Shown here: in pieces, positions 139-40,180 of the stretch
How positions within the stretch are numbered: the stretch's first letter is position 1
Layout of the letters: each line of letters begins with the position of its first letter
DNA from: Bacteroidota bacterium
Lineage (GTDB): Bacteria > Bacteroidota > Bacteroidia > Bacteroidales > F082
Direction: 5' to 3'
DNA length: 40,841 nucleotides
Assembly: GCA_003648625.1 (NCBI GenBank)
Contig: QMPO01000001.1
Coordinates: forward strand, 1 to 40,841
The notes under the pieces: model-generated
Seen by the model: only the letters and a program-made list of their open reading frames with translations
What the model was told of the DNA's origin: nothing
Database searches by the model: none
Position numbers and translations under genes: made by a program

Positions 139-1677
139 CTAGTTAACCATTTTCCGGATATTATGTGCTAAAGCGAGCAGGCCGGCCTCAATTTCCACCT
201 TATCTAAACCCCTGAGCATAAATCTCCTGAAGTTGTGATTATTCTTGATAATACCGAATACAGCTTCCACATCAACAGGCCGTTGACTTCGATATTTTTT
301 ACCTTGCTCGCTATTGAGTTTTTGTCGGATGACGGATTTGTACCGCATCAATTTGGGGCTAACTTCTATAGTGCGATTTCCCTTACCAGCATGACATACC
401 CCGCGCATTGGACATCCAGTGCAGTTTTGTGCCTGATAATGGTGTTTTTGTTGCTTATAACCAGTCGTTGTGGTTCTTGTTGATGCTTTTACAAAAGTCA
501 TGGCCTGCCCCATGGGGCAATAAAAGCAATCGAGATGCTCATTATAATGCAGGTTTTCTGCTCGGGCAGGGTCTTCTCTCCATTTTTTAGTCTGTTCTTT
601 ATGAAAGTAGTTGTACTTTACAAAGGCTTCAACCCCATTGCTTTCAAGATATTCATAATTTTCTTCTGACCCGTATCCGGCGTCAGCAACAAGTATTTCG
701 GGCATCTGTCCCAGAGTCTCTTCAAGTGATTCCATGTGTGGCTGAAGAGTGGTGGTGTCAGTAGTGGTTTGATGTATGGTGTAACCCAGGATGAACTGCT
801 CTTGTGTGGAGATTTGCCAGTTATAAGCAGGCTTTAGTTGACCATTCAGCATATGATCTTCTTTCATGCGCATAAACGTAGCGTCAGGATCCGTTTTGGA
901 GATGCTATTACGATCACCCATTTGCTTTTCCTGCTCATCATATTTATCAAGGTTCTTTGGCCAGTTTCTTCGAGCATAATTTAACTTCTGCTTTTTCTTT
1001 TTATCAACCTCCTTCCCTGATAAGGCTTTATCAATATTATCAATCGTTTGTCTGACTTTCTCAGCATCAATATGCTCGAAGTCTTCGGGCTCATTATTTT
1101 TCAACTCTTCCCTGGCAATACTTTCAGCATAAGCCCACAACTCTTTAAGCTGACGTTTGATCTTTTCACGATGGGTTTTAATACTTCGACCCCAAACAAA
1201 AGTATAACGATTAGCATTGGCCTCGATCTTGGTCCCATCCAGGTAAGCTGCTTCTTTTAAAGATACATGACCTGCTTCAACTAATAATAAAACAACCTGA
1301 CTGAACACTTGCTTTAAGACTCCCTTTAAACGCTCACTCCTGAAGCGATTGATTGTATTGTGGTCAGGATAGCTCATGCCGCTGAGCCACATAAAGTGAA
1401 TGTTCTGATGAAGGGCATCTTCTATCTTGCGACTCGAGTACTGATTGGTCAGGTATCCATAAATTAGTACCTTTAACATCAAACGAGGATGATAACTTGA
1501 AGTGCCACCACCTTTAAACTTCTTGATCAAAGGATCAATATCAATATGATCTATTACCTGGTTGACTACGCGAACAGAATGATTTTCATCGATTAACTCG
1601 TCCAGCGAAGGAGGTAAAAGCATATTTTGCTTGGGATTGTAGTCTTTAAATACTACTTTTGATTTATTAGATTGCAT
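139..1677 (-). CDS. IS1182-family (IS5/IS4-like DDE) transposase
   Basis: The N-terminus (YNPKQNMLLPPSLDELIDENHSVRVV...GGTSSYHPRLMLKVLIYGY...SSRKIE) is typical of IS1182 transposases. A DDE region follows (ADAGYGSEENY) and then a Cys-rich C-terminal part. ATG at 1677. The ORF is intact. Confidence 0.85.
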   Translation of the reverse strand: MQSNKSKVVFKDYNPKQNMLLPPSLDELIDENHSVRVVNQVIDHIDIDPLIKKFKGGGTSSYHPRLMLKVLIYGYLTNQYSSRKIEDALHQNIHFMWLSGMSYPDHNTINRFRSERLKGVLKQVFSQVVLLLVEAGHVSLKEAAYLDGTKIEANANRYTFVWGRSIKTHREKIKRQLKELWAYAESIAREELKNNEPEDFEHIDAEKVRQTIDNIDKALSGKEVDKKKKQKLNYARRNWPKNLDKYDEQEKQMGDRNSISKTDPDATFMRMKEDHMLNGQLKPAYNWQISTQEQFILGYTIHQTTTDTTTLQPHMESLEETLGQMPEILVADAGYGSEENYEYLESNGVEAFVKYNYFHKEQTKKWREDPARAENLHYNEHLDCFYCPMGQAMTFVKASTRTTTTGYKQQKHHYQAQNCTGCPMRGVCHAGKGNRTIEVSPKLMRYKSVIRQKLNSEQGKKYRSQRPVDVEAVFGIIKNNHNFRRFMLRGLDKVEIEAGLLALAHNIRKMVN

Positions 1678-1832: not shown

Positions 1833-2879
1833 CTACTTAAATACCGTAATGCTGCTGAATAAGGTTTGCCAGGCAAATGTTTGCGCAAGGTAAGCAACCG
1901 GAGAATTCAACCGGATTCCTTTGTCAGGTCCTTTTACAATAACTCCGAACATGTCGTATTCATTCCCTATATCGTCTTTCATCACTACCGGTAATGAGTT
2001 CTGAACTGCATAATACTTAGTTGCTTTGAGTCTGGAATCTTTTATAAAAGCAAGAAATAAGTGTTCCTCAAAATTACCAGCCACAACCAGGTTCATATTT
2101 CCGAATCTGGTTTCTATCACACGTGTCGAACCGGCAAACAAGGTCAATTCAAACAATAATAAGTTTTCATCCTTTAACACACCGAAGTATCTGGCTTCAG
2201 GCGGCAGTATCGTAGTTTCATCTCCGTTACCCGGGTCACCGAATTCACGTCCGCCTCCTGTTCCGCAGCTTCCTTCCGTGCATAATTCGTGATCTAAAAC
2301 AAGTGCATCGGGATAGGCATTTTTTATCAGAGCAAATGTCGTTTCCACTAACAAGCCCGTTTCAGGTTGAATACCAATAAACGATCCATTGATACATAAA
2401 TTTTTCATTTGCGACCAATGGCTTATTGTGTTTCTGTCATAAGGTATCAGATTTTCTTTGTATAACATTCCCGATACACCAAATTCCGTTATTTTTCCAT
2501 TAATCATACGGTTCCATGCCAACGTGCTTTCGGTACGCGGACAAAAACTTACCGAATAATAATAGGTTCCGATTTTATCATTCACAATTTCGTGCATGCC
2601 CATAACCGACTGTGGATAAACTTTTGTAACACCTTCGTAATGAAAAGCATAAACCAGCGCGTTATCATCCAGCCCGACATCACGAACAGGCACAAATATG
2701 GGCGTATCAATCGATTTGATCTTGTCCTTTTCAGCACCGAAATGTATGATATCGTCTGTATTTACAAGCCATACATCCTGACCCGTGGTCCTGTTATCAA
2801 CAGCTGCGTTTTTTTTTGCACATCCGATTGCCATGAGTAACACGATGCTGAGTATGTATATGAGTTTTATAGTTTTCAT
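1833..2879 (-). CDS. DUF3179 domain-containing lipoprotein
   Basis: Lipoprotein signal (LLMAIGC). The core SFCPRTESTLAWNR...FGVSGMLYKENLIPYDRNTISHWSQM matches the conserved DUF3179 pattern. The track start at 2882 is a TTG; the ATG lies at 2879. Confidence 0.7.
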   Translation of the reverse strand: MKTIKLIYILSIVLLMAIGCAKKNAAVDNRTTGQDVWLVNTDDIIHFGAEKDKIKSIDTPIFVPVRDVGLDDNALVYAFHYEGVTKVYPQSVMGMHEIVNDKIGTYYYSVSFCPRTESTLAWNRMINGKITEFGVSGMLYKENLIPYDRNTISHWSQMKNLCINGSFIGIQPETGLLVETTFALIKNAYPDALVLDHELCTEGSCGTGGGREFGDPGNGDETTILPPEARYFGVLKDENLLLFELTLFAGSTRVIETRFGNMNLVVAGNFEEHLFLAFIKDSRLKATKYYAVQNSLPVVMKDDIGNEYDMFGVIVKGPDKGIRLNSPVAYLAQTFAWQTLFSSITVFK

Positions 2880-2880
2880 C

Positions 2881-3512
2881 AATAAAACTGTCGGGCAAAA
2901 AACGCAATCCTTACAAAGACCGGTCGAATTTGCTGCCGGTTCACTCCTCGGTTGTTGTCTGCATCAAACGCAAAGGATTGGGATAAAAAAGTAGGGAGTA
3001 TAATTTGTTGGTGAAGACACCAACAATGGGGGGCAAAGACCGGTCGAATTTGCTGGCGGTTCACTCCTCAGTTGTTGTCTGCATCAAACGCAAAGGATTG
3101 GGATAAAAAAGTAGGGAGTATAATTTGTTGGTAAAGACACCAACAATGGGGGGCAAAGACCGGTCGAATTTGCTGCCGGTTCACTCCTCGGTTGTTGTCT
3201 GCATCAACCGCAAAGGATTGGGAGAAAAAAGTAGTGAGTAATATTTGTTGGTGAAGACACCAACAATGGGGGGCAAAGACCGGTCGAATTTGCTGGCGGT
3301 TCACTCCTCAGTTATTGTCTGCATCAAACACTAGGAGTGAGATAAAAAAATAGTGGGTACAATTTGTTGGTGAAGACACCAACAATGGGGTGGCAGAAGA
3401 TAAAACTGTCGGGTAAAAAATGTGTTCTTTACAAAAGGCTAGCTGAATTCGCTGACAAGGAATGAGATAAAGCAGTGAGTATAATTTGTTGGTGAAGACA
3501 CCAACAACGAAG
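2881..3512. repeat. Tandem array of a ~120-bp unit filling the whole intergenic spacer: four near-identical copies plus one degenerate copy, each with a conserved hairpin
   Basis: Unit starts (CAAAGACCGGTCG...) lie at 2914, 3034, 3154 and 3274, a 120-bp period. Copies differ by 3-5 substitutions. A fifth, diverged and shortened copy spans about 3394-3512. The hairpin TTGTTGGTG-AAGA-CACCAACAA occurs at 3005-3026, 3125-3146, 3245-3266, 3364-3385 and 3486-3507. Confidence 0.9.
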
Positions 3513-3530
3513 GTGAAAGAAATAAAATTG

Positions 3531-4757
3531 TTACATGGACTGAAGTAAGGGGAGGTAGTGACTGACGACAGAATCAAAAGCAGCACGGTAATTCTCTTCA
3601 ACCGGTTTTGACGGAGGAGACTCAACTTTTAGCGGATTTATAGCCCGTCCGTTTCTGTAAAACCTGAAATCAAGATGTGGCCCGGTTGCCAACCCGGTAC
3701 TTCCCACAAAGCCGATCAGGTCGCCCTGATTTACATGCTGCCCTACCTTAATCCCTTTGGCAAATCCTTTCAGGTGCATATAAGTAGTTGAATAGGTACC
3801 GTTATGCTTGATTTTTATATAGTTTCCGCCCCCGTTTTTCTGATAGCCTTTTTTAACAACAACCCCATCACCGACTGTATGAACAGGTGTTCCTGCCGGC
3901 GCTGCGTAATCAACTCCATGGTGGGGCCTCCTGATCTTCAAAACCGGGTGCATACGACTGTTAGAGAATCCTGAACTGATACGCGAGTACCGTAATGGTG
4001 CTTTTAAGAATGTTCGTTGCAAGCTGTTTCCTGCTGTATCAAAATAATCTCCTTTTCCGTTTTGCTCAAAATAAAACGCATACAGATCCTTGCTTCCATG
4101 ATTAAAGCTGGCGGCCATTACTCTGCCAAGTCCCGTATAGTTATCGTCCACATAAAAAGTTTCGTAGATGGCTTTGTAACTGTCGCCTTTCTGAAGGCCG
4201 AAGAAGTCAATGGTCCAGGCATATATTTCCGATAATTCGTTCGCCAGGTTAGGATCCGCCTTATTTTCGACCAGGGCATTCCACAAAGATGACTGAATAT
4301 TACCTTTCGTAGTTGCTATCCTGGTTACAATTTCCTTCTCACCACGTACGGCATAAACGCTATCAACAAGGTGATACAAAACATAGGATGAAGGCGTTAT
4401 ATCGTACACAAAATACAGTGCCCGGGGAACTGAATCGGTCGTGTAAAAGATATGATAGGTGTTCCCGTATTTGATATGTCTGACATCAAATGTATCTTTT
4501 GTGTTCCGTGCAATATAATCGATAACGGAATAATCAACACCATTTCGCAACAGGATATCAGCAAGAAATTCATTACGTTTTACTTTATCCTGCCTGATCT
4601 CAAGCGTATCCACATTAATGCCATACACCAGTTCGGGCATATAATATGCAACTTTCGCTTCGAGTTGTTCCTTATTATTCCGGCTATTGCAGGAGCTAAA
4701 AAACAAAACAACTGCTACCAGATATATTCCTGCTACACTTATTTTCTGCATACTCAT
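3531..4757 (-). CDS. M23 family metallopeptidase lipoprotein
   Basis: HHGVDYAAPAGTPV...GNYIKIKHNGTYSTTYMHL...GFVGSTGLATGPHLDFRF are the M23 (LytM-type) zinc and catalytic motifs. Lipoprotein signal FFSSC. The track start at 4775 is a TTG lying inside a -7 promoter box; the ATG is at 4757 (alternative at 4751). Confidence 0.85.
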   Translation of the reverse strand: MSMQKISVAGIYLVAVVLFFSSCNSRNNKEQLEAKVAYYMPELVYGINVDTLEIRQDKVKRNEFLADILLRNGVDYSVIDYIARNTKDTFDVRHIKYGNTYHIFYTTDSVPRALYFVYDITPSSYVLYHLVDSVYAVRGEKEIVTRIATTKGNIQSSLWNALVENKADPNLANELSEIYAWTIDFFGLQKGDSYKAIYETFYVDDNYTGLGRVMAASFNHGSKDLYAFYFEQNGKGDYFDTAGNSLQRTFLKAPLRYSRISSGFSNSRMHPVLKIRRPHHGVDYAAPAGTPVHTVGDGVVVKKGYQKNGGGNYIKIKHNGTYSTTYMHLKGFAKGIKVGQHVNQGDLIGFVGSTGLATGPHLDFRFYRNGRAINPLKVESPPSKPVEENYRAAFDSVVSHYLPLLQSM

Positions 4758-4772
4758 GATAAAATCCGGGGG

Positions 4773-4780
4773 CAAAGATA
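4773..4780 (-). promoter_or_regulatory. Bacteroidota -7 promoter box (TATCTTTG) for the M23 peptidase gene
   Basis: The reverse complement of CAAAGATA matches TAnnTTTG exactly. It lies 16 nt upstream of the ATG at 4757. Confidence 0.45.
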
Positions 4781-23581: not shown

Positions 23582-26341
23582 TTAGCGGACTATAAGTTTT
23601 TTCACGCCTGTTTTACCTCCATTTTCCACCTTTAAAAAATACATCCCGGGGCGAATTCCTTCAATACTTGCATTAACGTAGTTTACCCCTTTGCTGAGTT
23701 GCGTTCTGGCTATTTCTTTTACTTTCATGCCTGTAATATCAAACAGACTCATGTTGAGAGTTCCTCCTTTCTCAGTTTCTACTCTTATATGCACCTCTGA
23801 TGTTGCCGGATTGGGATAAAGTTCAATCTTCAGGTCATCTACAGAGGCTTTTTCTTCATTTATTCCAACATATTCAGGCGCTGACAGTTTTTTGCTGGTA
23901 TATAATCTATACTCTCCGGCCTGCAGTAACACCAATTCATTTACATTGGTTACTTCAATCGAATCTCCGGTCCAGTACTCATACCATGTTCCTGTAAAAT
24001 AAAAATCAGGATCAATTTCTGCTTCTGCAACATCGAAATTACCCAGCACAACAACTGACATATCAGGCGTTGTAAGTTTTACTTTTTTTACTGCCCCACG
24101 CACATCCAGTTCAAAATCTTCTGTTTTAAACACATCAAGATTTTTCTTCAGATCGATCAACGATGCATAGGTATAATATAAGCTGCGCCGCTTCCAACTT
24201 TCCATGTAATCCCATCTCGGAGGTTTCTCTCCTACCCTTCCGTTGTAGTTAATCGTATAATCATAACCGCGCTCACCAAACTGCCAGATCATTTTCGGTC
24301 CCGGGATGGTAAAGAAGAAATTAGCCGCAAGCGCTTCACGCTGCAATGCCGTTACCGTATCCTTGATGTCATAATTTCCGGATGAATTCCCGAAAGAGAT
24401 GTTCTTAAACATCAGTCTTTCTTCATCGTGGCTTTCCATATATCCTACCACATGCGGTTCATCCCAGCCACGTTTTTGATACGAAATCCATGAAAAATCG
24501 GATTTTCCGCTGTCATTATAACCCATGGTAGCTTCGTTGTAATTATAATTCGAGTTACCCCAAAGCAGCATTCCGTTACCAGATAGTGTTTTTTCTTCAC
24601 TGTTGGCGGCAAAATGTTCAAGAATTACATAGGCATCCGGATCGTAAGACCAGATGACATTTGCCATGCGTGTCAGGATATTAATACGCGACTGGTCATA
24701 ACCACCACCATCACCCGGCGTATTGGTAAATCCTTTTGTAAAATCAAACCGGAAGCCATCCACTCTGTATTCTTCAATCCAATACCTGTTTACGCGGTCC
24801 ACAAAATTCCTGGTATCCTGACTTTCGTGGTTAAAATCACTGCCCCAGCTAAAAACCGGATTGGGTGACACGGTATTAAACCAGGGATTGTTAGCTGCCG
24901 GTCTGTTGTTTGTAGCATCCCAGTACATCATCACCAAAGGGCAGGTATTGTAGGCATGGTTCAGTACCATATCCATTACAACAGCAAATCCCCGGCTGTG
25001 ACACTCGTCGATAAAAGCCTTTACCGTATTTTTCGGGCCATAATATTTGTCGGGAGCAAAGTAATAGTTGGGGTTGTACCCCCAGCTCGAGTTACCTTCA
25101 AATTCACTGAACGGCATTATTTCAATCACATTAACACCCAGTCTTTCCAAATAGTCAAGTGTATCTTTTAAGGCAGCAAACGTGTGGTTGCCGGTAAAGT
25201 CACGTACCAGCAGTTCATAAACCACCATATCTGTTATTTCTGGACGAGTGAAATCATCAGTTTCCCATGAATATTCTGTTTGTGCTGTTTGAAAAACCGT
25301 GGCTATCCCGGTGGTTTTCCCTTCCGGATATGTCAGCATGTTCGGGTAAGTTGCTGCGGTAATCCATTTGTCGTTCCATGGGTCACTTACTTTATCAGCA
25401 TAGATATCACCAACACGAATATCCCCGTCAATAAAGTACTGGTAAATATATTCTCTGCCCGGTTCCAGATTGTTTATCTCTATCCAATAGCGTTTGCTGT
25501 CAACAGAGCGTTTCATATAATAATCGTCCTCAAGTTCCCAATTACTGAAATCACCTACAGCAAAAACAAATTCTTTTTCAGGAGCATAAAGGCTCAGGAT
25601 TACAGTTTGATCATCGATGTAATTAATACCGTCTGTTATTCCTTCGGGAGGGTCTTCTATTACCAAAGGAGGCCTGACAAAATAATAAAATGAGTCGGCC
25701 ACACTTTCCATACTGTTAACAGCAATTGCTTTCACCCAGGTTTTACCCGTGTTTTCAACAACAATATCATAAGAAAAGCTGCTTCCGGTATCGGCATACA
25801 CCTGTTGCTCTCCAACATACAGGAATGTAGAATCTGCTTCACTGCTGTTACCCTCTACATGGATAATATCCTCGGTTTCGACAATAACCGGAAATTCCTC
25901 AGGCAAGGTAATCTGAATGGCCAGGCCTTCTTCGTAAACGGGATAAAAGATATCGGGATACGTTTGCTGGCTGGCATCGGCACTCCTGAAAACAAAACAT
26001 AATTCGCTGATAACTTCTGATAAATCAACATTATAAAATGTACGTATTGAAGGTGTAATCTCAAGCTGGTAAAGGTTAGCTCCCGTCTGTGTCAGCTTAG
26101 GCTGTGTGTTGTTATCTCCCCAACTGCCAATTACATTTTGCCAGTTTGTACCGTTAACTGTCACGCCGGTATGCGCATATACATCACCCGAATACCCTTC
26201 AAGGCCTGTTCCGGTAGTATTTAATGTAATTGTTACTGCTGCGTCAGCTGTTGGGAACGGCGGATCAACAATAATTACCTGGGCATTAACTGATAATCCT
26301 GTAAGAAAGCAAATTATTAGTACGGAAAGTTTTTGTAGCAT
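23582..26341 (-). CDS. GH13 alpha-glucan hydrolase (amylase/pullulanase-like, with a CBM48-like module), T9SS cargo
   Basis: GH13 regions are present: VVMDMVLNHA, VDGFRFDFTKG, VILEHF, YMESHDEE. A CBM48-like region precedes them (FAVGDFSNWE...YQYFIDG). A signal peptide is present. The C-terminus LYPNPATSEVHIRV...GMYFLKV...KLIVR is a T9SS sorting domain. Confidence 0.8.
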   Translation of the reverse strand: MLQKLSVLIICFLTGLSVNAQVIIVDPPFPTADAAVTITLNTTGTGLEGYSGDVYAHTGVTVNGTNWQNVIGSWGDNNTQPKLTQTGANLYQLEITPSIRTFYNVDLSEVISELCFVFRSADASQQTYPDIFYPVYEEGLAIQITLPEEFPVIVETEDIIHVEGNSSEADSTFLYVGEQQVYADTGSSFSYDIVVENTGKTWVKAIAVNSMESVADSFYYFVRPPLVIEDPPEGITDGINYIDDQTVILSLYAPEKEFVFAVGDFSNWELEDDYYMKRSVDSKRYWIEINNLEPGREYIYQYFIDGDIRVGDIYADKVSDPWNDKWITAATYPNMLTYPEGKTTGIATVFQTAQTEYSWETDDFTRPEITDMVVYELLVRDFTGNHTFAALKDTLDYLERLGVNVIEIMPFSEFEGNSSWGYNPNYYFAPDKYYGPKNTVKAFIDECHSRGFAVVMDMVLNHAYNTCPLVMMYWDATNNRPAANNPWFNTVSPNPVFSWGSDFNHESQDTRNFVDRVNRYWIEEYRVDGFRFDFTKGFTNTPGDGGGYDQSRINILTRMANVIWSYDPDAYVILEHFAANSEEKTLSGNGMLLWGNSNYNYNEATMGYNDSGKSDFSWISYQKRGWDEPHVVGYMESHDEERLMFKNISFGNSSGNYDIKDTVTALQREALAANFFFTIPGPKMIWQFGERGYDYTINYNGRVGEKPPRWDYMESWKRRSLYYTYASLIDLKKNLDVFKTEDFELDVRGAVKKVKLTTPDMSVVVLGNFDVAEAEIDPDFYFTGTWYEYWTGDSIEVTNVNELVLLQAGEYRLYTSKKLSAPEYVGINEEKASVDDLKIELYPNPATSEVHIRVETEKGGTLNMSLFDITGMKVKEIARTQLSKGVNYVNASIEGIRPGMYFLKVENGGKTGVKKLIVR

Positions 26342-26367
26342 CTTATTTCGTTTTTAATTTTCAGGTG

Positions 26368-26375
26368 CAAAAGTA
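26368..26375 (-). promoter_or_regulatory. Candidate -7 box (TACTTTTG) for the GH13-T9SS gene
   Basis: Exact TAnnTTTG match on the minus strand, 27 nt upstream of the ATG at 26341 and downstream of the terminator at 26394-26425. Confidence 0.45.
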
Positions 26376-26393
26376 GCTGAAACTTTATAAGGA

Positions 26394-26425
26394 TATAAAA
26401 AAACTGCCCCGATTGGGGCAGTTTT
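26394..26425 (-). terminator. Rho-independent terminator after the multi-CBM gene
   Basis: The minus strand reads CTGCCCC-aatc-GGGGCAG followed by TTTTTTT. It lies 24 nt after the stop at 26449. Confidence 0.75.
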
Positions 26426-26448
26426 ATATAGTTTAAAGATGTATCATC

Positions 26449-29400
26449 TTATTGAACAATGAGCTTTTTAACCGCACGTTTGCCGTCTTCGCCCATAATG
26501 TTTACGAAGTAGACTCCTCTTGAGAGACCACTCATGTTGAACTGTACCAGTCCGCTTGCACGGAAGCTGTCTTGTACCTGAACAATAACTCTTCCCTGAA
26601 TATCAGTTACCATTACCTGAACATCACCTTTGAATGTTTCACCTATTGATTTGAGGTTTACATATCCATTGGTTGGGTTCGGGAACAATAAGATGTCAGC
26701 ATTGTATAAAACATTATTCTCACTGATACTGTTAGCAAAGAAGTATGGACCACCAGCTAATTGTAAATCACCAAGATCGCCGGTATTGTTCCAGTTATCA
26801 CCTGTTCCGTACCAAACTGTCTGGTAATCCCTGCCCTGATCCAGATCATTGTCGTTGTTGCCAAGGCTCCATCCCATGACACGTCCTTTACCTGGTGCAA
26901 AATTGAAGTTATCCCATCCAAGACGGATTTCAACCGCATAACCATCATCTGTATTCAACCATTGAGAGTTATAGTTTGTAATAGGTACTCCATCTGCTTT
27001 AATCCACAAGAGGTCGGTTCCATTAGCGCCATCAGCATTATTGCTAACCACATCCATTATTAATTGCGTGTCAAAATCGCCATCATAAGTACCGTCTTTG
27101 TCATTGTTACCGTCAATGTACATTTCAATAGCATCATTATCCCAGGGGTTGCCAACAGATGCAAGATTAACAACTCCATCAACAACATTAGCTCCGATGT
27201 ACAAGTTAAACTCATCCCATTTAGCACCCCATGTAACTGTATTGTTATTCGGGCCTGTGCCAACAACAACGCCATCACTACCATATGCCAGGTCGTACTC
27301 ACTTAAATCACCATCAATCGCCGGTGGTGTTTCCGTATATTGTGCCTGAGCAAGTCCTTCTTCAGGAACTGTTCCATCAGCGTTGAAATTGTACTCGCCT
27401 GTAATACAATCAAATGAAACTCTGTACCTGTTAGCCGTTGCCGGAACCATTGGTCCGCCAATAACAGCTGTTCCTGTCGGGAAATCGGCAGCGCCCCACT
27501 CAACTGTTGATTGACCATCTTTTCTGAATACAACATCCTGTGCATCGAAAAACTCATAAGTTCCCACATAATTTGTCGGCATATCCGTCGGGTTTCTCAA
27601 AATAACATCACCAATTGTTGAGTTGTACACACTAATGCAACCGCATGATAATTCGCCAAAGGTCAAATCACCGAATGAAGATGTATTCGAAACATTTTCT
27701 AATCCACCATTCCACGCAAGTGTATAAGCTACACCTTCACCATCATCATCATAATAGAACAGGTCAAATCCCATTTGGTTTCCTTCTTCGGGAGTTACCC
27801 CCAGTTTATCCAAAGGAATGCCAATTTCTGCTGAATAACCATCAGCGGTAATCTGGAATCCCAGTAAAATATCAGAAGCGGTGAAGCCATCAGGTCCTTC
27901 CAGAATCTCAACACCGGTAGCACCAAATTTTGCTCGTAAATCATGACCATCATATACACCTCCTGACTTATCTCCATCAATAAACACCTCACCGGCATCG
28001 TCCACGTAAGGAACAGCATCCTTAACATCAACACCTACAAACAGGTAAGCTCCTTCGCGTGCATCAGGATTTTTATAAGTAACACCAAAATTAACTTCGT
28101 TTACATCATCATTTGCTTCACCATCAATAATACGCGAAATATTCTTGCTAATATCCCAGTCGGCTTCGTTTAATTTACCATCTACTGTTATGTCAAACAC
28201 TTTGGGGGCGATGACAGAATTACCCAAACGTGTAAAACAGAAATCACCCGATTTGCAGTTAAATGTAATATCGTATTTACCTCCGGGCACCTGGATCAAT
28301 TTAGTTACATCGTGCATGCCTGTACCACAAGGGAATGTACCTCCCCAGATATTATCGTTTCCAATAGGCTGTCCATCGGACATTTTAAAGAAAAGATTTG
28401 TTGCTGCCGTAAAATTGTACGATAAAGTAAACTCGCTCGGATAATCTGCATCACGTGCCATAAATGTTGGTGGCAGATCTTCATTTGCACCCCACTCGTT
28501 GAAATCACCTAATAACTCTATTTCAGTACAAACGTCATTGTTTGGAACAAAATTATATTCAAAGGTCAACGCGTTAAAAGTAACGTCATATGTTCCAGCC
28601 ACTAACGGGATGTTTGGTCCATTATCAGGATTACCAACACCACTTGGCCAGTCGCTGTTGCCCCAGGCTTGCGTCCAGTCTTTGTTCTCACGGAATTTCA
28701 CTTCTGAATCTTCGTACCATGAACGGGTAAGTTTCCATAACTGCGGATTAAGAGGGTCACGATGCATCATCACATCACCGTTCCAGTTATTAAAAGCGCC
28801 AATCATACTGATTGGACCACTGGTGAGCTGGAAAGTATATTGACAGGTTGTATCGTCTATCCAAGTAAACAAGACGAGGTAGTCAGTTGTAATTCCCGGA
28901 TCAGCTTCGTCATTTAGCGGCACCTGGATGTTCGGTCCGTTAACGGCTGTACCTGTTCCTGAAGGAAAATCTGACCCTCCCCAGCTTACAGTCCAATCGG
29001 CATCCTGACGGAATTTAACTTCTACTGTATCATTGCCATTATCATCGCTGTCAGCATTCAGGTGTAAAACCGCTCCCCACATGTTTGGGTTATCCGGCAA
29101 TCTGTACATTGGATAATCGGCGCTCCAGCCATTGAACTCGCCAATCATGGAAATGACTCCACTTGATTTCTGGAACGTATAATTGGCTGTAGTATCATTC
29201 AGCCATTCAAATGTTACAAAGTAACTGCCTTCAGGAGCTTTGATATTTGGCCCGCTATTTACAGCTACTCCGGAAGGAAAATCAGCACCTCCCCAGTTAT
29301 AAGTCCATTCAGCATTCTGCCGGAACTTAACCTCAACGGTATCGTCCGGGGTTTCAGTGATGTCTTTCAGCGTGATTCCTGTTGTCCATATATCAGGATC

Positions 29401-29847
29401 TGAAGCGTCACGAGTCATCTCATGATCGCCCGTCCACAGGTTAAATTCTCCTATCATACCAATGTTACCACTTGTTCTCTGAAAATTGTACGTAGCCGTT
29501 GAATCTGCCGGATTGAATTCAAACGTTACATAGTAGTTACCTTTAGGTGCCAGGACATTTGCCCCGCCCATTGTTGCTGTTCCTGATGGAAAATCAGCAG
29601 AGCCCCAGTTTACGGCCCAGTCGGCATCAAGCCTGAACTTAACCTCAACGGTATCATTCGGAGTTTCCGTAATATCAACTAAATTGATGTACGTTGACCA
29701 CATGTTCGGATTTTCCATGTCACGTGTCATGTTATGATCACCGTTCCATAGATTGAACTCGCCAATCATGCTGACTTGTCCCTGCTGACTTATTGCGTTC
29801 AGCGAAACAAAAACAGCCAAAATTACTAACAGTAAAATTCTCTTCAT
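26449..29847 (-). CDS. Non-catalytic multi-CBM surface/secreted protein: six starch-binding-like beta-sandwich repeats, two CBM9-like domains and a T9SS sorting domain
   Basis: It has a signal peptide. Five tandem ~100-aa repeats (aa 25-540) share the pattern IGEFNxW..D..M.RD...P..W....L......D.VEVKFR....W...WG..DFPSG....GPNI..P.G.Y.VTF.....YxFQ, and a sixth lies at aa ~745-825. Two CBM9-like regions are marked by DGKLNEADWD... and IDGDLSEYD...WDNDAIEMYIDGNNDKDG. The T9SS C-terminal domain reads LLFPNPTNGYVNL...GVYFVNI...KLIVQ. No glycoside hydrolase catalytic motif was recognised. Confidence 0.7.
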   Translation of the reverse strand: MKRILLLVILAVFVSLNAISQQGQVSMIGEFNLWNGDHNMTRDMENPNMWSTYINLVDITETPNDTVEVKFRLDADWAVNWGSADFPSGTATMGGANVLAPKGNYYVTFEFNPADSTATYNFQRTSGNIGMIGEFNLWTGDHEMTRDASDPDIWTTGITLKDITETPDDTVEVKFRQNAEWTYNWGGADFPSGVAVNSGPNIKAPEGSYFVTFEWLNDTTANYTFQKSSGVISMIGEFNGWSADYPMYRLPDNPNMWGAVLHLNADSDDNGNDTVEVKFRQDADWTVSWGGSDFPSGTGTAVNGPNIQVPLNDEADPGITTDYLVLFTWIDDTTCQYTFQLTSGPISMIGAFNNWNGDVMMHRDPLNPQLWKLTRSWYEDSEVKFRENKDWTQAWGNSDWPSGVGNPDNGPNIPLVAGTYDVTFNALTFEYNFVPNNDVCTEIELLGDFNEWGANEDLPPTFMARDADYPSEFTLSYNFTAATNLFFKMSDGQPIGNDNIWGGTFPCGTGMHDVTKLIQVPGGKYDITFNCKSGDFCFTRLGNSVIAPKVFDITVDGKLNEADWDISKNISRIIDGEANDDVNEVNFGVTYKNPDAREGAYLFVGVDVKDAVPYVDDAGEVFIDGDKSGGVYDGHDLRAKFGATGVEILEGPDGFTASDILLGFQITADGYSAEIGIPLDKLGVTPEEGNQMGFDLFYYDDDGEGVAYTLAWNGGLENVSNTSSFGDLTFGELSCGCISVYNSTIGDVILRNPTDMPTNYVGTYEFFDAQDVVFRKDGQSTVEWGAADFPTGTAVIGGPMVPATANRYRVSFDCITGEYNFNADGTVPEEGLAQAQYTETPPAIDGDLSEYDLAYGSDGVVVGTGPNNNTVTWGAKWDEFNLYIGANVVDGVVNLASVGNPWDNDAIEMYIDGNNDKDGTYDGDFDTQLIMDVVSNNADGANGTDLLWIKADGVPITNYNSQWLNTDDGYAVEIRLGWDNFNFAPGKGRVMGWSLGNNDNDLDQGRDYQTVWYGTGDNWNNTGDLGDLQLAGGPYFFANSISENNVLYNADILLFPNPTNGYVNLKSIGETFKGDVQVMVTDIQGRVIVQVQDSFRASGLVQFNMSGLSRGVYFVNIMGEDGKRAVKKLIVQ

Positions 29848-29954
29848 TTTTATTAAGTTTTAATGAATAATTAGGATATATTTTGTGCTAAGATAATGAA
29901 ATTTTAGCTTTTTGTCCAGCTTCACAAGGCAACCGGAGTGTTTTTATCCACCGG

Positions 29955-29987
29955 CAAATTTAAATTGCCTGAAACAATTGATGCAAA
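29955..29987 (-). promoter_or_regulatory. Candidate promoter of the multi-CBM gene: -7 TAAATTTG (29955-29962) and -33 TTTG (29984-29987), 21-bp spacer
   Basis: Both elements match the Bacteroidota consensus TTTG-N19-21-TAnnTTTG on the minus strand. The -33 element lies inside the palindrome at 29981-29996. Confidence 0.45.
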
Positions 29988-29996
29988 CGTTTGTGT
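29981..29996. promoter_or_regulatory. LacI-family-type palindromic operator (ATGCAAACGTTTGTGT)
   Basis: The core CAAACGTTTG (29984-29993) is a perfect 10-bp palindrome centred on CG, like PurR/CcpA-type boxes. It sits in the divergent region between the multi-CBM gene and susC, and a LacI-family regulator is encoded in the locus. Confidence 0.5.
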
Positions 29997-30163
29997 TAAA
30001 ATTTGTTAATTGATCTTTTTGCCTTACTGCCAGATCAGCACATAAAACAGTTACCAGCCAGTTTGTATGTGTATATTTTCATAACACATTGAATGTGTTT
30101 TTTTTAAAACTTCAATACCCATGCTAAACAACTTTAAAAAATATTGAATCAATATCTTTCTGC

Positions 30164-30177
30164 TGCAAGCACTTACA
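30164..30177. promoter_or_regulatory. Weaker LacI-like box (TGCAAGCACTTACA) at the -33 position of the susC promoter
   Basis: 10 of 14 positions are symmetric. The left half-site TGCAAGC resembles TGCAAAC of the strong box. It ends 20 nt upstream of the -7 box at 30198. Confidence 0.25.
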
Positions 30178-30197
30178 GTATCTATTCTTACGTGTAT

Positions 30198-30205
30198 TAT
30201 CTTTG
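30198..30205 (+). promoter_or_regulatory. Candidate -7 box (TATCTTTG) for susC-susD
   Basis: Exact TAnnTTTG match, 65 nt upstream of the ATG at 30270. Confidence 0.45.
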
Positions 30206-30269
30206 TATTTAATTTAGTAATTTCGTATCAAATCAAAATCATAAGTTAAGAAACCAAAAAACAACATTT

Positions 30270-33269
30270 ATGCTTAAAAAAATACGTTTTCTTAAAGTAT
30301 TCCTGTTGACATTCCTGCTTTTTGGCATTACCCAAATGTATGCGCAGGAAAAGACAATTACAGGAGTTGTTACAGATGCCGAAACCGGTGAAACGTTGAT
30401 TGGTGTTAACGTAACATGGGGCAGTGACATGGGGAAGGGCGCCGTTACGGATATCGATGGAAATTACCAGTTGATCGTACCCGACACATTGAGTGCTCTC
30501 CGGTTTTCTTATGTCGGATACACTCCGCAAATCATTCCGATCACTTCCGATGTAATTCATGTGGCTTTGCAGCCCGGCGAAGAGTTACAGGAGGTGGTTA
30601 TTGTGGGTTACGGCACGCAAAAAACAAAAGAAGTTACCAGTGCCATTGCGCGTGTGAAACCGGAAGATTTCAATCAGGGCAACATCAGCGATCCAATTCA
30701 GCTTATACAAGGAAGGGTTGCAGGGGTTTCCATATCGAAGCCCGGCGGTGATCCTAACCAGGACTTCAACGTAAGGATCAGAGGCCTTTCCACTTTTGGT
30801 TCGAACACACAACCACTGATCATTATTGACGGAGTACAGGGTACAACAGATTTATTAAACTCTCTTGACCCTGACGATGTTGCTTCTTTTGATGTGTTAA
30901 AAGATGCTTCGGCAGCTGCTATTTACGGAACAAAAGCCGCTTCGGGAGTAATTATTATTACCACTAAAAAAGGAGAGTTTGTTCAGGGTGATAAGAAAAC
31001 CTTCAACCTGACATTTAACACTGCCCTCACTTCCGAATCGGTAGCAAGAAAACTGGACGTTTTATCGGCAGACGAGTATCTGCAGTTTTCAAATGCAACC
31101 AATTACAACAACGCTACCGACTGGATGGATGAAATCACACAGAAAGGATTCCAGCAGGCATATAACCTGGCAGCACAGGGAGCAACTAAAAATTCCAGTT
31201 ACAGAATATCTTTCAACTACAGAGGAGGTAACGGAGTTGTAAGATCAACCGGATATGAGCAACTGAACGGGCGGGTTAATTTTACCCAAAAAGGACTTAA
31301 TGACAAGCTTACTCTCGATTTCAATTTGTCGGGAACAACGAGGAAAGAAGATTATACACAGAGTGATGCGATGACTTTTGTAGCCCGGTATAATCCCACG
31401 GCACCGGTTATGGCGACAACAGACACTATAGATTCTTTCTCCCAGGAGTGGGGAGGATATTTCCAAAGGGAAGCATTCTCGTTTTATAATCCACGTGCTA
31501 TAATCGACCAGGGAACGCTTGACGGTAAGAAATCAAATATTGTGGGGAGTCTGAAAGCAACTCTTGAGCCAATTAAAGGATTGAAATTAAGTGGTTTCTA
31601 TTCTGTTACGCAGGGCAACGAATTGTTTGGCACCTATTGGAGTAAGAACGCCTACTGGACACCCTATGCTGTAGGAAGCCATAAAGGTTTTGCAAGAAAA
31701 GAAACAAAAGATCACTTTAACCAACTTTTTGAGATTATAGGTAGTTATGAGAAACGCTGGGAGAAGGTAGGATTTAGTGTTATGGGAGGTTACTCGTGGC
31801 AGGAAGCTATTGATGATGAATTCTGGGCTTATGGCGAAGGATTTCTATCTGACGGTTTCTCCTATAACAACTTAGGCTCTGCATCGGTAAACAAAGCCAA
31901 TAAAGAAACAATGAGCAGCTATAAAAAAAGAGCTACACTTATCGGCTTCTTCGCAAGAGCTTCATTTACTTTCTTGGATGGAATATATTTAACAGGTAGC
32001 TTCAGGAGAGACGGCTCAACAATGTTTGGTGAAAATAATAAATGGGGTAATTTCCCTGCCGTCAGTGCCGGCTTCGACCTGGCTAAGTTTGTAGATCTTG
32101 GATTCGTAAACCAGTTGAAATTCAGAGGAGGCTATGGTGTTACAGGAAACCTTCCTCCCGAACCCTATTTATCACAAGAGCGATTTAATGTTACCAACGA
32201 AATGTTCTTCTACAATGGAGAATACATTCAGGCATACGCTCCTGTACGAAATGCTAACCCAAACCTTAAATGGGAAACAAAAGCAGAAATAGATGTGGGT
32301 GTAGACTTTTATATGTTAAATTATAAAATCAGCGGATCTATCGATTATTATCAGAGTAAAAGTTCAGACCTGCTGTTGGAATATACAGTGCCGGTTCCGC
32401 CCAACGCTTCTGACAGGATGTGGATCAACCTGGGGGAGTTGAAAAACGCCGGGCTTGAGTTTGCTGTAAGCTGGAAAGTGTTCGAAAATAAAAAATGGGG
32501 GTGGACAACCAATTTCAATTTTTCAAAATACTTCGATACCAAACTGGCTAAAATTACAAGTGAATTTGTGGACTCAGATGCTACTATCTATCTGGGTGAT
32601 TTAGGAGCTCCTTTCTTTACGGGCATACAAACTATCCTGGTTGAAGAAGGTCAGCCAATAGGGCAAATTATTGCCCCTATATATGTGGGCATCGACTCAA
32701 CCGGTAAATTATTGTATCAGGTTTCAGCAGATACAATTGATGGAATTGGCACAAACCCTGATCAGTATGACGATTACCACACAGTAGGTAACGGGCTTCC
32801 TGACTTTGAGCTTGGTTGGGGAAATACTTTTTATATAGGAAATTTCAACATTAACTTTTTCCTGAGAGGTGTATTCGGCCATTCGCTACTCAACGTAAAC
32901 AATGCACGCTACGGGGTTCCGGTAGTTATGGGAATCCAGAGCGGTATGGCACAGGCCCTTGATTTTATTGATGCGACCAACGGCCCTGTTTATTCAAACG
33001 TACATGTTGAGAAGGCTGATTTTGTCTCGCTTGACAACTTTTCGCTGGGATATCGATTTGATTTCCCCAACAGCAATTATGTAAGTAATATGAACATTTA
33101 CATTTCAGGGCAGAATTTATTTACCATCACAGGTTATTCCGGAGTTTCTCCCGAAGTAAGATACGGCGATGCGTACAACAACAACAATCCGCTGGCACCG
33201 GGAATCGACAGAGAGAATACATATTTCAGAACCAAAAGCTTCACATTGGGAGCGAGTATATCATTTTAA
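30270..33269 (+). CDS. susC: SusC/RagA-family TonB-dependent outer membrane transporter
   Basis: 999 aa with an N-terminal CarboxypepD_reg-like domain. The SusC signature VVIVGYGTQKTKEVTSAI is present, followed by plug and barrel regions, and the C-terminus ends in F. A SusD gene follows immediately. Confidence 0.9.
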   Translation: MLKKIRFLKVFLLTFLLFGITQMYAQEKTITGVVTDAETGETLIGVNVTWGSDMGKGAVTDIDGNYQLIVPDTLSALRFSYVGYTPQIIPITSDVIHVALQPGEELQEVVIVGYGTQKTKEVTSAIARVKPEDFNQGNISDPIQLIQGRVAGVSISKPGGDPNQDFNVRIRGLSTFGSNTQPLIIIDGVQGTTDLLNSLDPDDVASFDVLKDASAAAIYGTKAASGVIIITTKKGEFVQGDKKTFNLTFNTALTSESVARKLDVLSADEYLQFSNATNYNNATDWMDEITQKGFQQAYNLAAQGATKNSSYRISFNYRGGNGVVRSTGYEQLNGRVNFTQKGLNDKLTLDFNLSGTTRKEDYTQSDAMTFVARYNPTAPVMATTDTIDSFSQEWGGYFQREAFSFYNPRAIIDQGTLDGKKSNIVGSLKATLEPIKGLKLSGFYSVTQGNELFGTYWSKNAYWTPYAVGSHKGFARKETKDHFNQLFEIIGSYEKRWEKVGFSVMGGYSWQEAIDDEFWAYGEGFLSDGFSYNNLGSASVNKANKETMSSYKKRATLIGFFARASFTFLDGIYLTGSFRRDGSTMFGENNKWGNFPAVSAGFDLAKFVDLGFVNQLKFRGGYGVTGNLPPEPYLSQERFNVTNEMFFYNGEYIQAYAPVRNANPNLKWETKAEIDVGVDFYMLNYKISGSIDYYQSKSSDLLLEYTVPVPPNASDRMWINLGELKNAGLEFAVSWKVFENKKWGWTTNFNFSKYFDTKLAKITSEFVDSDATIYLGDLGAPFFTGIQTILVEEGQPIGQIIAPIYVGIDSTGKLLYQVSADTIDGIGTNPDQYDDYHTVGNGLPDFELGWGNTFYIGNFNINFFLRGVFGHSLLNVNNARYGVPVVMGIQSGMAQALDFIDATNGPVYSNVHVEKADFVSLDNFSLGYRFDFPNSNYVSNMNIYISGQNLFTITGYSGVSPEVRYGDAYNNNNPLAPGIDRENTYFRTKSFTLGASISF

Positions 33270-33293
33270 CGACTATAAAAAACAAGATATATC

Positions 33294-34847
33294 ATGAAAA
33301 GATTATCAATTTCATTTAAAATAATGTTGGTTGCCTTACTGATTCTTGTGGTGGGCACCCAGCAATCGTGTACTAAACTTGAGGAACCTGTGTATTCGGA
33401 GCTTACCGGAGACAAGTTTTTCGAGAATCCTGATAATTTAATCTACGCTTTCGGTGTGGCTTATACAAACCTGTATCAGCTAATGGGACATAAGTATGGT
33501 ATTGGTTTCGATGCGGGAACTGACATTCTGGTTGTTCCCCAAAGAGGCGGCGACTGGTTCGATGGCGGAGAATGGATTCGCTGGCATCGGTTAGAATACC
33601 GACCGTCAGAAGCTTATGTTAGCAGATGGTGGAATATCATTTATTATGGAATTAACACATGTAACCGCCTTATATTTCAGTTTGAGGCCCTGGAAGAAGT
33701 AGACGTGACACCTGCCGTTTCAGAATTACGTGCTTTGCGGGCTTTGTATTATTACTGGCTGGTTGATATTTACGGAAACGTACCAATTCAAACAGATTTC
33801 AATGTACCTCCCGATTTCAAACCGAGTACCAAAACCCGGCAGGAAGTGTATGATTTTATTGAAGCAGAATTAAAAGAAGTAATGCCTCATCTCTCAAAAG
33901 AGACAGGCCTTGCCTATTTTGGCAGAATGAATTATTATGCTGCACAAATGGTTTTGGCAAAACTTTATCTGAATGCCGAAGTTTATACAGGAGTACCCCA
34001 ATGGGAGAAAGCATCGAAAGCCTGCGATTCAGTTATGACAGGGAACTTTAGCTTAACCGGCAATTTCTTTACAAATTTTGAAGAAGATGCAACTACTTCG
34101 CCTGAATATATTTTAGGCATTGCCTTCGACCAGGTAAATGCACCTGCCTTTGAAGTTCATCTTTTTACACTTCATTACAATCTGTCGAGTAAATATCAAT
34201 TTGAAGACAATTGCTGGAACGGGCTTTCCATTCAGGAATCTTTGTACAACTCATTTGAGGAACAAGACGTAAGAAGAAACGGGCTGTTGGCAGGATTTCA
34301 ATACTTTGACGATGGAACTCCTGTAGAAGACCCCAGTTACGAACAGTTCAATCCTAACGACCCGACGGCACCTATTGATCCGGACGGTGCGCCGCTGAAC
34401 CTGACTCCTGAGATAAACATGCTTGAGCCAAACTGTTTACGTCAGGCAGGAACAAGGGTAGCCAAATTCCCGTTTATTGTAGGCAGTGACAGGTATACAA
34501 GTAATGACTTTCCGATTTTCAGATATGCTGATGTTTTACTGATGAAAGCCGAAGCCTTAATGCGCTCGGGCGGTGACATAGGGTTGGCACTTAGTCTTGT
34601 GAACCAGGTAAGAGCTCGTGCCAATGCTACTCCTTTAACAGAGCTAACGTATGAAAATCTGCTGGCCGAACGTGGTCGCGAATTATATGCTGAAGGATTC
34701 AGACGTTCTGATATGATCCGGTTTGGCGTTCTTCTAAATACACGTTGGGAGAAGCCTGAGGTTTCACCTTCATATGTTACATTATGGCCTATTCCCGAAA
34801 GCCAGATCCAGGCAAATCCAAACCTGATACAGAACCCAGGGTATTAG
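33294..34847 (+). CDS. susD: SusD/RagB-family nutrient-binding outer membrane lipoprotein
   Basis: The lipobox reads GTQQSC. The SusD-like TPR core is present (RALRALYYYWLVDIYGNVP, LMKAEALMR, LLAERGRELYAEGFRRSDMIRF). Confidence 0.9.
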   Translation: MKRLSISFKIMLVALLILVVGTQQSCTKLEEPVYSELTGDKFFENPDNLIYAFGVAYTNLYQLMGHKYGIGFDAGTDILVVPQRGGDWFDGGEWIRWHRLEYRPSEAYVSRWWNIIYYGINTCNRLIFQFEALEEVDVTPAVSELRALRALYYYWLVDIYGNVPIQTDFNVPPDFKPSTKTRQEVYDFIEAELKEVMPHLSKETGLAYFGRMNYYAAQMVLAKLYLNAEVYTGVPQWEKASKACDSVMTGNFSLTGNFFTNFEEDATTSPEYILGIAFDQVNAPAFEVHLFTLHYNLSSKYQFEDNCWNGLSIQESLYNSFEEQDVRRNGLLAGFQYFDDGTPVEDPSYEQFNPNDPTAPIDPDGAPLNLTPEINMLEPNCLRQAGTRVAKFPFIVGSDRYTSNDFPIFRYADVLLMKAEALMRSGGDIGLALSLVNQVRARANATPLTELTYENLLAERGRELYAEGFRRSDMIRFGVLLNTRWEKPEVSPSYVTLWPIPESQIQANPNLIQNPGY

Positions 34848-34872
34848 AACAAAACAGGTACTTTTTTATATC

Positions 34873-34902
34873 AGAAAAGCAGGCCGGAAGGTCTGCTTTT
34901 CT
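34873..34902. terminator. Bidirectional terminator between susD and the LacI-family gene
   Basis: AGAAAAGCAGGCC-GGAA-GGTCTGCTTTTCT forms a 13-bp stem including one G.U pair, with T/A-rich tracts on both sides. Confidence 0.75.
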
Positions 34903-34925
34903 TTATTTAATAAATATATCTTTTA

Positions 34926-35933: not shown

Positions 35934-35957
35934 TAATCGGGTGTTCAAATGTGCGCA

Positions 35958-35965
35958 CAAAGTTA
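35958..35965 (-). promoter_or_regulatory. Candidate -7 box (TAACTTTG) for the LacI-family gene
   Basis: Exact TAnnTTTG match on the minus strand, 25 nt upstream of the ATG at 35933. It overlaps the palindrome TGTGCGCACA (35950-35959). Confidence 0.4.
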
Positions 35966-35999
35966 CGGAAAATTCACTAAACCAACTGAAACAACGGTT

Positions 36000-37394: not shown

Positions 37395-37397
37395 GAT

Positions 37398-40166: not shown

Positions 40167-40180
40167 TATACCCGGGGTCT

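Follow-up and report, generated by a model that had tools for sequence, protein, structure and literature searches.

The stretch analysed here (the window) comprises 40,841 nt, positions 1 to 40,841 of contig QMPO01000001.1 in assembly GCA_003648625.1, from an uncultured Bacteroidota bacterium of hydrothermal sediment (Bacteroidales; F082). It raises the question of what kind of element occupies the 651-bp spacer (2880–3530) between the genes for an M23 peptidase and a DUF3179 protein, and of how it came to be there. The spacer is a tandem array of four units of ~120 bp plus a fifth, diverged one. We read it as the product of a local tandem amplification of a ~120-bp segment around an element of the repetitive extragenic palindromic (REP) type, with a proposed effect on the M23–DUF3179 transcript, and we put the probability of this reading at roughly 0.65.

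That the spacer is a tandem array with a period of about 120 bp had been claimed in an earlier note made from the DNA letters alone, and two programs agree on it. Tandem Repeats Finder gives a period of 120, 4.1 copies and 92% matches over 2914–3400, and a repeat finder puts units at 2914, 3034 and 3154 and a hairpin-bearing 58-mer at five places, with spacings of 120, 120, 119 and 122 nt. Since both genes are on the minus strand, the array sits between the stop of the M23 gene and the start of the DUF3179 gene, with 24 nt separating the M23 stop codon from the first hairpin. In minus-strand order, the parts of the locus are as follows:

3531..4775, minus strand: gene for the M23 peptidase (Csd3_N2 and Peptidase_M23 domains), upstream; from Pfam and the list of open reading frames (ORFs)
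3436..3512, minus strand: unit 5, diverged and shortened, with an intact REP hairpin at 3486–3507; hairpin 22/22, aligned rest ~68%
3400..3435, minus strand: D3', a copy of the DUF3179 leader inside the array; 83% identity, from the repeat finder and the relatives' alignment
3274..3393, minus strand: unit 4, with a REP hairpin at 3364–3385 and a degenerate inverted REP at ~3311–3327; from repeat finders and unit comparison
3154..3273, minus strand: unit 3, with a REP hairpin at 3245–3266 and a degenerate inverted REP at 3191–3207; from repeat finders and unit comparison
3034..3153, minus strand: unit 2, with a REP hairpin at 3125–3146 that carries the change G3133A, and a degenerate inverted REP at 3071–3087
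2914..3033, minus strand: unit 1, with a REP hairpin at 3005–3026, the foot CCCA at 3027–3030 (minus strand), a degenerate inverted REP at 2951–2967 and GACCGGTC at 2918–2925
2882..2917, minus strand: D3, the leader directly upstream of the DUF3179 ATG; kept in array-free relatives
1833..2879, minus strand: gene for the DUF3179 protein, downstream; Pfam E = 3.7e-44

The four long units begin at 2914, 3034, 3154 and 3274 and share ~90–97% pairwise identity. They had been described as exactly 120 bp long and separated by 3–5 substitutions, which is true of unit 1 compared with unit 2 (three substitutions) and unit 3 (five), but not of units 2 and 3, which differ at eight positions, nor of unit 4, which has ~90% identity and a 1-nt deletion that accounts for the hairpin spacing of 119. 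Unit positions 23 and 37 read C,G / G,A / C,G / G,A across units 1–4, and this alternation, already noticed, fits the duplication of a 240-bp dimer. The fifth unit does extend to 3512, as had been reported; outside the hairpin it is ~68% identical to unit 1, and it has a deletion of ~35 nt. The 36 nt directly before the DUF3179 start (D3) have a second copy, D3', which precedes unit 5, in line with the observation that sequence upstream of that start recurs in the array.

Each unit is built around a hairpin, TTGTTGGTG-AAGA-CACCAACAA (as a 22-mer, TTGTTGGTGAAGACACCAACAA). Of its five copies, those in units 1, 3, 4 and 5 are exact and the one in unit 2 has a single change, G3133A, so that the description of a perfect hairpin in every unit fails only there. 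The hairpin was not found elsewhere in the 40.8-kb window, where shuffled windows lead one to expect zero matches. The palindrome GACCGGTC and a G-run, both said to belong to each unit, were found in units 1–4. In the sense direction of both genes, along the minus strand, a unit has first the foot CCCA and then the intact hairpin; after a 36-nt spacer come a degenerate inverted copy of the hairpin and a ~30-nt linker holding GACCGGTC. The degenerate copy (TTGATG-CAGA-CAACAAC, then CGAGG) shares 14 of 17 bases with the inverted REP, a score equalled in 7 of 2000 shuffles; it lies 56 nt from the intact one, in the same relative orientation as in the doublets of other genomes. Given this order of parts and the doublet-like orientation, the 120-bp unit looks like a decayed REP doublet plus a linker.

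The hairpin is not peculiar to this locus. An exact scan for the 22-mer over one genome per species (596 Gb) found it in 16 other genomes, in one stretch each, against a chance expectation that we estimate from the 596 Gb at ~0.07. Fifteen of these genomes are Bacteroidota and one is a Chlorobiota metagenome-assembled genome (MAG). The carriers are Ohtaekwangia, Algoriphagus, Pontibacter, Dyadobacter, Arcicella, Rufibacter, Daejeonella and three Mucilaginibacter, together with Chitinophagaceae and Sphingobacteriaceae MAGs, three unclassified Bacteroidota MAGs and the Chlorobiota MAG, and the host orders include Cytophagales, Sphingobacteriales and Chitinophagales. When the loop was relaxed, further copies appeared within the same 8-kb loci, bringing the count to four in L006, three in L009, three in L010 and four in L011 (comparison loci carry L numbers). 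When the unit was compared with all loci by BLAST, only unit positions ~91–116 matched, the flanks elsewhere being unrelated, and a scan of a metagenome collection with a unit-specific 22-mer returned this locus only. The full 120-bp unit was thus found only here and appears to be local, the dispersed part being the hairpin, and a miniature inverted-repeat transposable element (MITE) was rejected on the same results.

Of ~31 hairpins, no more than two or three are not placed between ORFs of 100 aa or longer. One of these cases is clear: in Algoriphagus hitonicola (L003, 1480–1501) the 22-mer is in frame within the S41 peptidase domain of a tricorn-protease homologue and encodes ...GVVGEDTNNG..., either because a REP was inserted into the gene or by coincidence. 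The genes next to the hairpins are co-directional or convergent, four hairpins lying between convergent genes (L012–L015), and their functions are unrelated (shikimate kinase, ABC permease, POT transporter, EF-P, ThuA, M28 peptidase, ferrochelatase and others), on which ground a shared neighbour gene or regulon was rejected. In tblastn searches with the window's DUF3179 and M23 proteins, the 16 loci gave zero matches, and the single DUF3179 neighbour among them came from Pfam. In this case, Dyadobacter sp. CY323 (L006, 468–1753), a distantly related DUF3179 gene (517–1662, minus strand) has an inverted REP doublet 16–92 nt upstream and a single REP 28 nt downstream. REPs therefore adjoin DUF3179 genes in two distant lineages, a coincidence with an estimated chance of ~0.02 in a post hoc comparison. 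In an uncultured Bacteroidetes MAG (L011, 6640–7055), four hairpins, two per orientation and each pair with its own conserved flanks, occupy one 450-bp spacer and resemble a cluster of bacterial interspersed mosaic elements (BIMEs). A phage origin was rejected, as a viral scan gave two matches, both with self-complementary loops and at chance level. A BLAST search of plasmids with the hairpin gave one record, in a search made insensitive by arms that are each shorter than the search word, and a full-text literature search for the stem sequence gave zero relevant papers. The family to which the hairpin belongs is one of dispersed, footed palindromes located between genes.

The anatomy of this family is that of REP elements. 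The core is a 9-bp stem, TTGTTGGTG/CACCAACAA, with a 4-nt loop and an RNA fold energy of -12.1 kcal/mol, and some variants have compensatory changes in the arms, for example ATGTTGGTG...CACCAACAT in L006. The loop is pyrimidine-rich on one strand (TCTT, TTCT, TCCT, TTAT and others). When 30 copies were oriented by loop composition alone and their flanks then compared, a 5' foot GCCN emerged on the pyrimidine-loop strand, with G at -4 in 15, C at -3 in 24 and C at -2 in 26 of the 30, the 3' flank being unconserved. Inverted doublets spaced 34–54 nt apart occur in L006, L012, L015 and L024. A short footed palindrome in extragenic position that forms doublets and clusters has the anatomy of REP/REPIN elements, and four of their defining features were found: a stem-loop palindrome, extragenic position, a one-sided foot (in this case GCCN) and inverted doublets or clusters.

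A published counterpart exists. In the classification of HUH Y1 transposases by Quentin et al. 2018 (PMC6006769), the REP-associated subclass 2.6 comes mostly from Bacteroidetes, and its REPs are atypical, without GT[AG]G. Table S1 of that work ("REP manually identified in REPtrons") lists GCCGTTGTTGGTGTTATCACCAACAACC for the REP-associated tyrosine transposase (RAYT) AEI49282.1 of Runella slithyformis, assigned to subclass 2.6 (RAYT/TnpA_REP), and this REP has the stem GTTGTTGGTG/CACCAACAAC and the foot GCCG (PMC6006769). The Runella REP is the window hairpin with a different loop, and its foot is the same as the one derived independently here. What the earlier note had foreseen as the deflating outcome, a known REP or MITE family scattered across genomes, is what is found, for the hairpin only. 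Its suggestion of a novel satellite or MITE-like element comes closest of the three options it offered, but the hairpin belongs to a REP-type family, listed as flanking the Runella RAYT gene, and is not novel, nor is the whole unit dispersed, being confined to one locus. We regard the REP identity of the hairpin, and the origin of the array from it, as very probable.

The history of the locus can be followed in relatives. DUF3179 homologues were searched and their contigs compared, relatives being named here by DUF3179 identity. The M23–DUF3179 spacer is without a hairpin in the 61% relative L021 (63 bp) and in the 50% relatives L022 (50 bp) and L023 (44 bp). In all three it lies in a conserved POR–M23–DUF3179–SusD–SusC context, and the last two keep the longer gene order isocitrate dehydrogenase, citrate synthase, YjbQ, ACP phosphodiesterase, POR, M23, DUF3179, SusD, SusC. 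The 80% relative L019 has one hairpin, a homologous body of ~95 nt, D3, and a D3-like copy upstream of the hairpin. With no hairpin in the 50–61% relatives and one in L019, the element entered after the split from the former, and it was amplified only in the lineage of the window. The array is lineage-specific and local, in an intercistronic spacer that is otherwise 44–63 bp long.

Two comparisons bear on what has been kept. Between L019 and the window the hairpin arms are identical (18/18) and the rest is ~63% identical; between unit 5 and unit 1 the hairpin is identical (22/22), with ~68% in the rest. By our calculation, either degree of hairpin conservation would have P ~2e-4 under uniform divergence. 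The D3 leader, TTGTAAGG-N14-CG(A/T)CA(G/A)TT, is recognisable in L021–L023, down to 50% protein identity (L019 455–490; L021 2227–2262; the spacers of L022 and L023). It does not fit the Bacteroidota -33/-7 promoter spacing and could serve DUF3179 genes as a regulatory element or in the initiation of translation. For the window's DUF3179 gene itself, gene callers give either a 348-aa protein that begins with the ATG at 2879 or one of 333 aa whose start lies 45 nt further downstream, and its homologues are named "DUF3179 domain-containing (seleno)protein" in some sources.

Contigs with an identical or near-identical DUF3179 gene were also compared for the number of hairpins. Five hairpins, in units 5-4-3-2-1, are present in the window, L001/L037, L018/L034 and L031; four in L036, whose last unit is a hybrid of units 2 and 1; three in L033 (units 5-4-1); and two in L032 and L035, where unit 5 is followed by a unit-3-type body joined to D3. 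L040 carries units 4-2-1; it and L020, a 97% strain, contain mosaic units, and L018 differs from the window by a unit-3 variant at 3001–3002 inside unit 1. All shorter forms are in-register recombinants, and the flanks of the various forms are near-identical, with 0–2 differences in 1200 nt. Head-to-tail units, with 2–5 hairpins among near-identical assemblies, would fit a variable-number tandem repeat (VNTR) or minisatellite, although short-read collapse may account for the differences. The five-hairpin form, with the same unit-specific substitutions, recurs in at least five assemblies from different samples and is secure.

From these data the following course of events may be proposed. A REP doublet, consisting of one intact and one now degenerate inverted copy, would have entered the 44–63-bp operon spacer together with a ~30-nt linker in an ancestor of the lineage, and the DUF3179 leader would have been duplicated during this entry. 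The first copy presumably arrived through a RAYT acting on single-stranded DNA, as we infer. Unequal homologous recombination or replication slippage could then have raised the number of units from one to two and, via the 240-bp dimer, to four, and the same recombination process appears to keep shifting the copy number, between two and five hairpins.

What the array does for its host is the second part of the question. In enterobacteria, REPs make the mRNA upstream of them more stable and dampen transcription, and tandem duplications use them as join points. For REPs and BIMEs in operon spacers, mRNA stabilisation and transcription termination have been described (PMC3733652). By analogy, each stem-loop of the array (about -12 kcal/mol) on the M23–DUF3179 transcript could hold up 3'-to-5' exonucleases and terminate transcription partially. 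Together the stem-loops may protect the M23 message and reduce read-through, so that DUF3179 expression would fall or be uncoupled, approximately in step with the number of copies. The minimum-free-energy fold predicted for the spacer as minus-strand RNA (z = -5.6) contains all five hairpins. G3133A keeps a G-U pair only on the minus-strand RNA, which hints weakly at the sense strand as the one that matters. We hold such an effect at the mRNA level only tentatively, as a possibility somewhat short of even odds, and a nearly neutral array is equally plausible.

Control of the DUF3179 gene by copy number, one of the options in the earlier note, is possible, and copy number does differ among assemblies. 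A stronger functional claim would make the locus a contingency locus or rheostat, in which the frequent gain and loss of 120-bp units is selected for changing DUF3179 expression between cells or populations and the REP hairpin only seeds recombination. Copy numbers of 2, 3, 4 or 5 with near-identical flanks are what such a locus would present, the array lies directly upstream of the conserved DUF3179 leader, and the REP doublet upstream of the Dyadobacter DUF3179 gene in L006 would extend the association to a second lineage. Against this, assembly collapse may have produced some of the variation, which could also be neutral, relatives function with a 44–63-bp spacer, and the Dyadobacter coincidence, besides being post hoc, comes from a locus whose REPs also adjoin unrelated genes. 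We consider selection of this kind unlikely. Slightly less likely again is a broader version, in which a phylum-wide hairpin, its stem identical across orders and its loop free, has been recruited by the host, and the tandem array serves as a fast-mutating dial for DUF3179 expression in hydrothermal-sediment populations.

Amplification around a REP has also to be set against a cis-regulatory origin, in which the array would consist of promoters, small-RNA genes or operator sites, the hairpin being a palindromic operator or an RNA element. The preservation of the stem sequence across orders would fit a conserved binding protein, and a TATAAT-like box stands beside the stem in each unit. The earlier note assigned each unit a promoter-like box on the plus strand, TATAATTTG. 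This box is made of the last spacer bases and the first stem bases, its TTTG belonging to the hairpin stem, and it is directed on the plus strand toward the 3' end of the M23 gene, antisense to it. It is present only in units 1, 2 and 5, unit 3 having TAATATTTG and unit 4 TACAATTTG, and it is unconserved beside the hairpin elsewhere. As a Bacteroidota promoter (-33 TTTG / -7 TAnnTTTG, with the TTTG ~19–21 nt upstream) it was rejected, since it fits TAnnTTTG in no register. A scan of 2600–3800 for sigma-70 promoters and terminators stayed at shuffle level, with no sigma-70-like promoter in the array and only weak 5-bp plus-strand "terminator" stems. Membership in an Rfam family was likewise rejected: there is no match at gathering thresholds (the best sub-threshold one, DnaX, reaches 18.9 bits where 35 are required), and what a search at E <= 10 adds is weak and of chance level (DnaX, FuFi-1, HrrF). 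A tRNA and tmRNA scan found none. The hairpins between convergent genes (L012–L015) argue against a promoter or operator role, others stand beside functionally unrelated genes, and close relatives are entirely without the element. The proposal of a tandem small-RNA or promoter array is accordingly not supported, and a cis-regulatory origin in general seems to us very improbable.

Several observations weigh against the origin from a REP, or against an effect on the transcript. The association with a RAYT is weak, its basis being one published case, one genome in a supplementary table; neither a RAYT nor another Y1 transposase was detected in the window or the fetched loci by Pfam or, for the loci, by a motif scan; and a tblastn search of plasmids with the E. 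coli RayT found RAYT-like genes in Bernardetia and Fulvitalea that are flanked by other REPs. Within ~50 kb of sequence from the window's species the hairpin was seen in the array only (against 3–4 per 8 kb in L006, L009, L010 and L011), which suggests that the element has not proliferated by transposition in this species. The array copies are direct repeats, unlike the alternating orientation of BIMEs, and their foot is neither GTAG nor CGTC. There is no U-tract after the hairpins, so that the stems are not canonical intrinsic terminators. Finally, the assemblies are short-read, and collapse may lie behind part of the copy-number differences; in L041 a 100-N gap interrupts the array, within which three contigs end; and, the flanks being near-identical, unequal crossing-over and assembly collapse of a tandem dimer fit the shorter forms alike.

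The last of these points lead to the suspicion, also raised in the earlier note, that the array or its copy number is itself an assembly artefact. Contigs that end inside the array and a gapped scaffold are what such an artefact would leave, and the collapse of a tandem dimer would give shorter forms. The units differ every 20–40 nt, however, and are therefore separable with 150-nt reads, and the identical five-hairpin structure was recovered in the assemblies of other samples, with different pipelines. For the array as such an artefact is, in our judgement, highly improbable, but the copy-number differences may in part be a matter of assembly.

Some further features of the locus can be described briefly. 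Between 2879 and 3625 the minus strand holds ORFs of 61, 78 and 105 aa in one frame, split only by TGA codons. The TGA stops within the array arise from the CTCAG variant of alternate units, and with three ORFs of one frame broken in this manner and zero Pfam matches, a coding array was rejected; the array is very likely non-coding. The insertion sequence (IS) that had been called adjacent, with a DDE_Tnp_1_6/DUF772 transposase, occupies 139–1677 and thus lies beyond the DUF3179 gene, not beside the array. It is polymorphic, being absent in L041, L019, L020 and more distant relatives, where SusD is next, and present in L032 in opposite orientation with identical flanks. At the other end of the window, 23582–40792 is a starch/maltodextrin utilisation locus with SusC/SusD, a LacI regulator, GH13 and GH31 enzymes and amylases sorted by the type IX secretion system (T9SS), an ordinary context unrelated to the array.

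Comparison with known systems places the array among REP-type clusters. With the Runella subclass-2.6 REP its hairpin shares the stem, the 4-nt loop length and a GCCG-type 5' foot, and with the REP/REPIN family at large the hairpin family shares extragenic position, several copies per locus in some genomes, and inverted doublets. It differs from the Runella REP with its RAYT in that, in the array species, the hairpin is seen only in the array and no RAYT is seen, and it differs from classical, dispersed REPs in that the copies are direct tandem repeats from local duplication and the foot is not GTAG or CGTC. Enterobacterial BIMEs such as those between malE and malF or hisJ and hisQ are, like the array, clusters of REP stem-loops between co-directional operon genes; they alternate REP orientation over defined short linkers, whereas the array consists of 120-bp head-to-tail units with one intact REP in each. 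Strain-variable tandem units in intercistronic spacers are also known from the MIRU-type VNTRs of Mycobacterium tuberculosis (MIRU, mycobacterial interspersed repetitive unit) and the boxB modules of pneumococcal BOX elements. Like the array, these are 45–120-bp tandem units in such spacers, with copy number differing among strains, but MIRU and BOX units are dispersed at many loci, whereas the whole unit of the array has a single locus and only its hairpin core is dispersed. Regularly spaced palindromic repeats are a trait shared with arrays of clustered regularly interspaced short palindromic repeats (CRISPR). A CRISPR array, which the earlier note had already discounted, was rejected: there are no unique spacers, the inter-hairpin sequence being itself repeated (92–97% identical), no cas domains were found, and the window has no cas genes.

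For annotation, the result removes a false lead, as the array is not a new RNA, a promoter or a defence array. A REP-type cluster is a known kind of element; what is new is a footed hairpin with the same stem across several Bacteroidota orders. REPs and RAYTs are usually thought to co-diverge quickly, and the presence of the same 9-bp stem with a non-canonical GCCN foot across several orders is therefore unusual. Also new is the growth of such a hairpin into a tandem, apparently variable minisatellite within an operon of an uncultured Bacteroidota bacterium from hydrothermal sediment. The locus presents a dated series from REP insertion to minisatellite in an operon, with no copy, then one, then 2 to 5. 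If the copy-number differences are true, they would provide a natural strain marker and a test case for the action of REP stem-loops on polycistronic mRNAs in this phylum.

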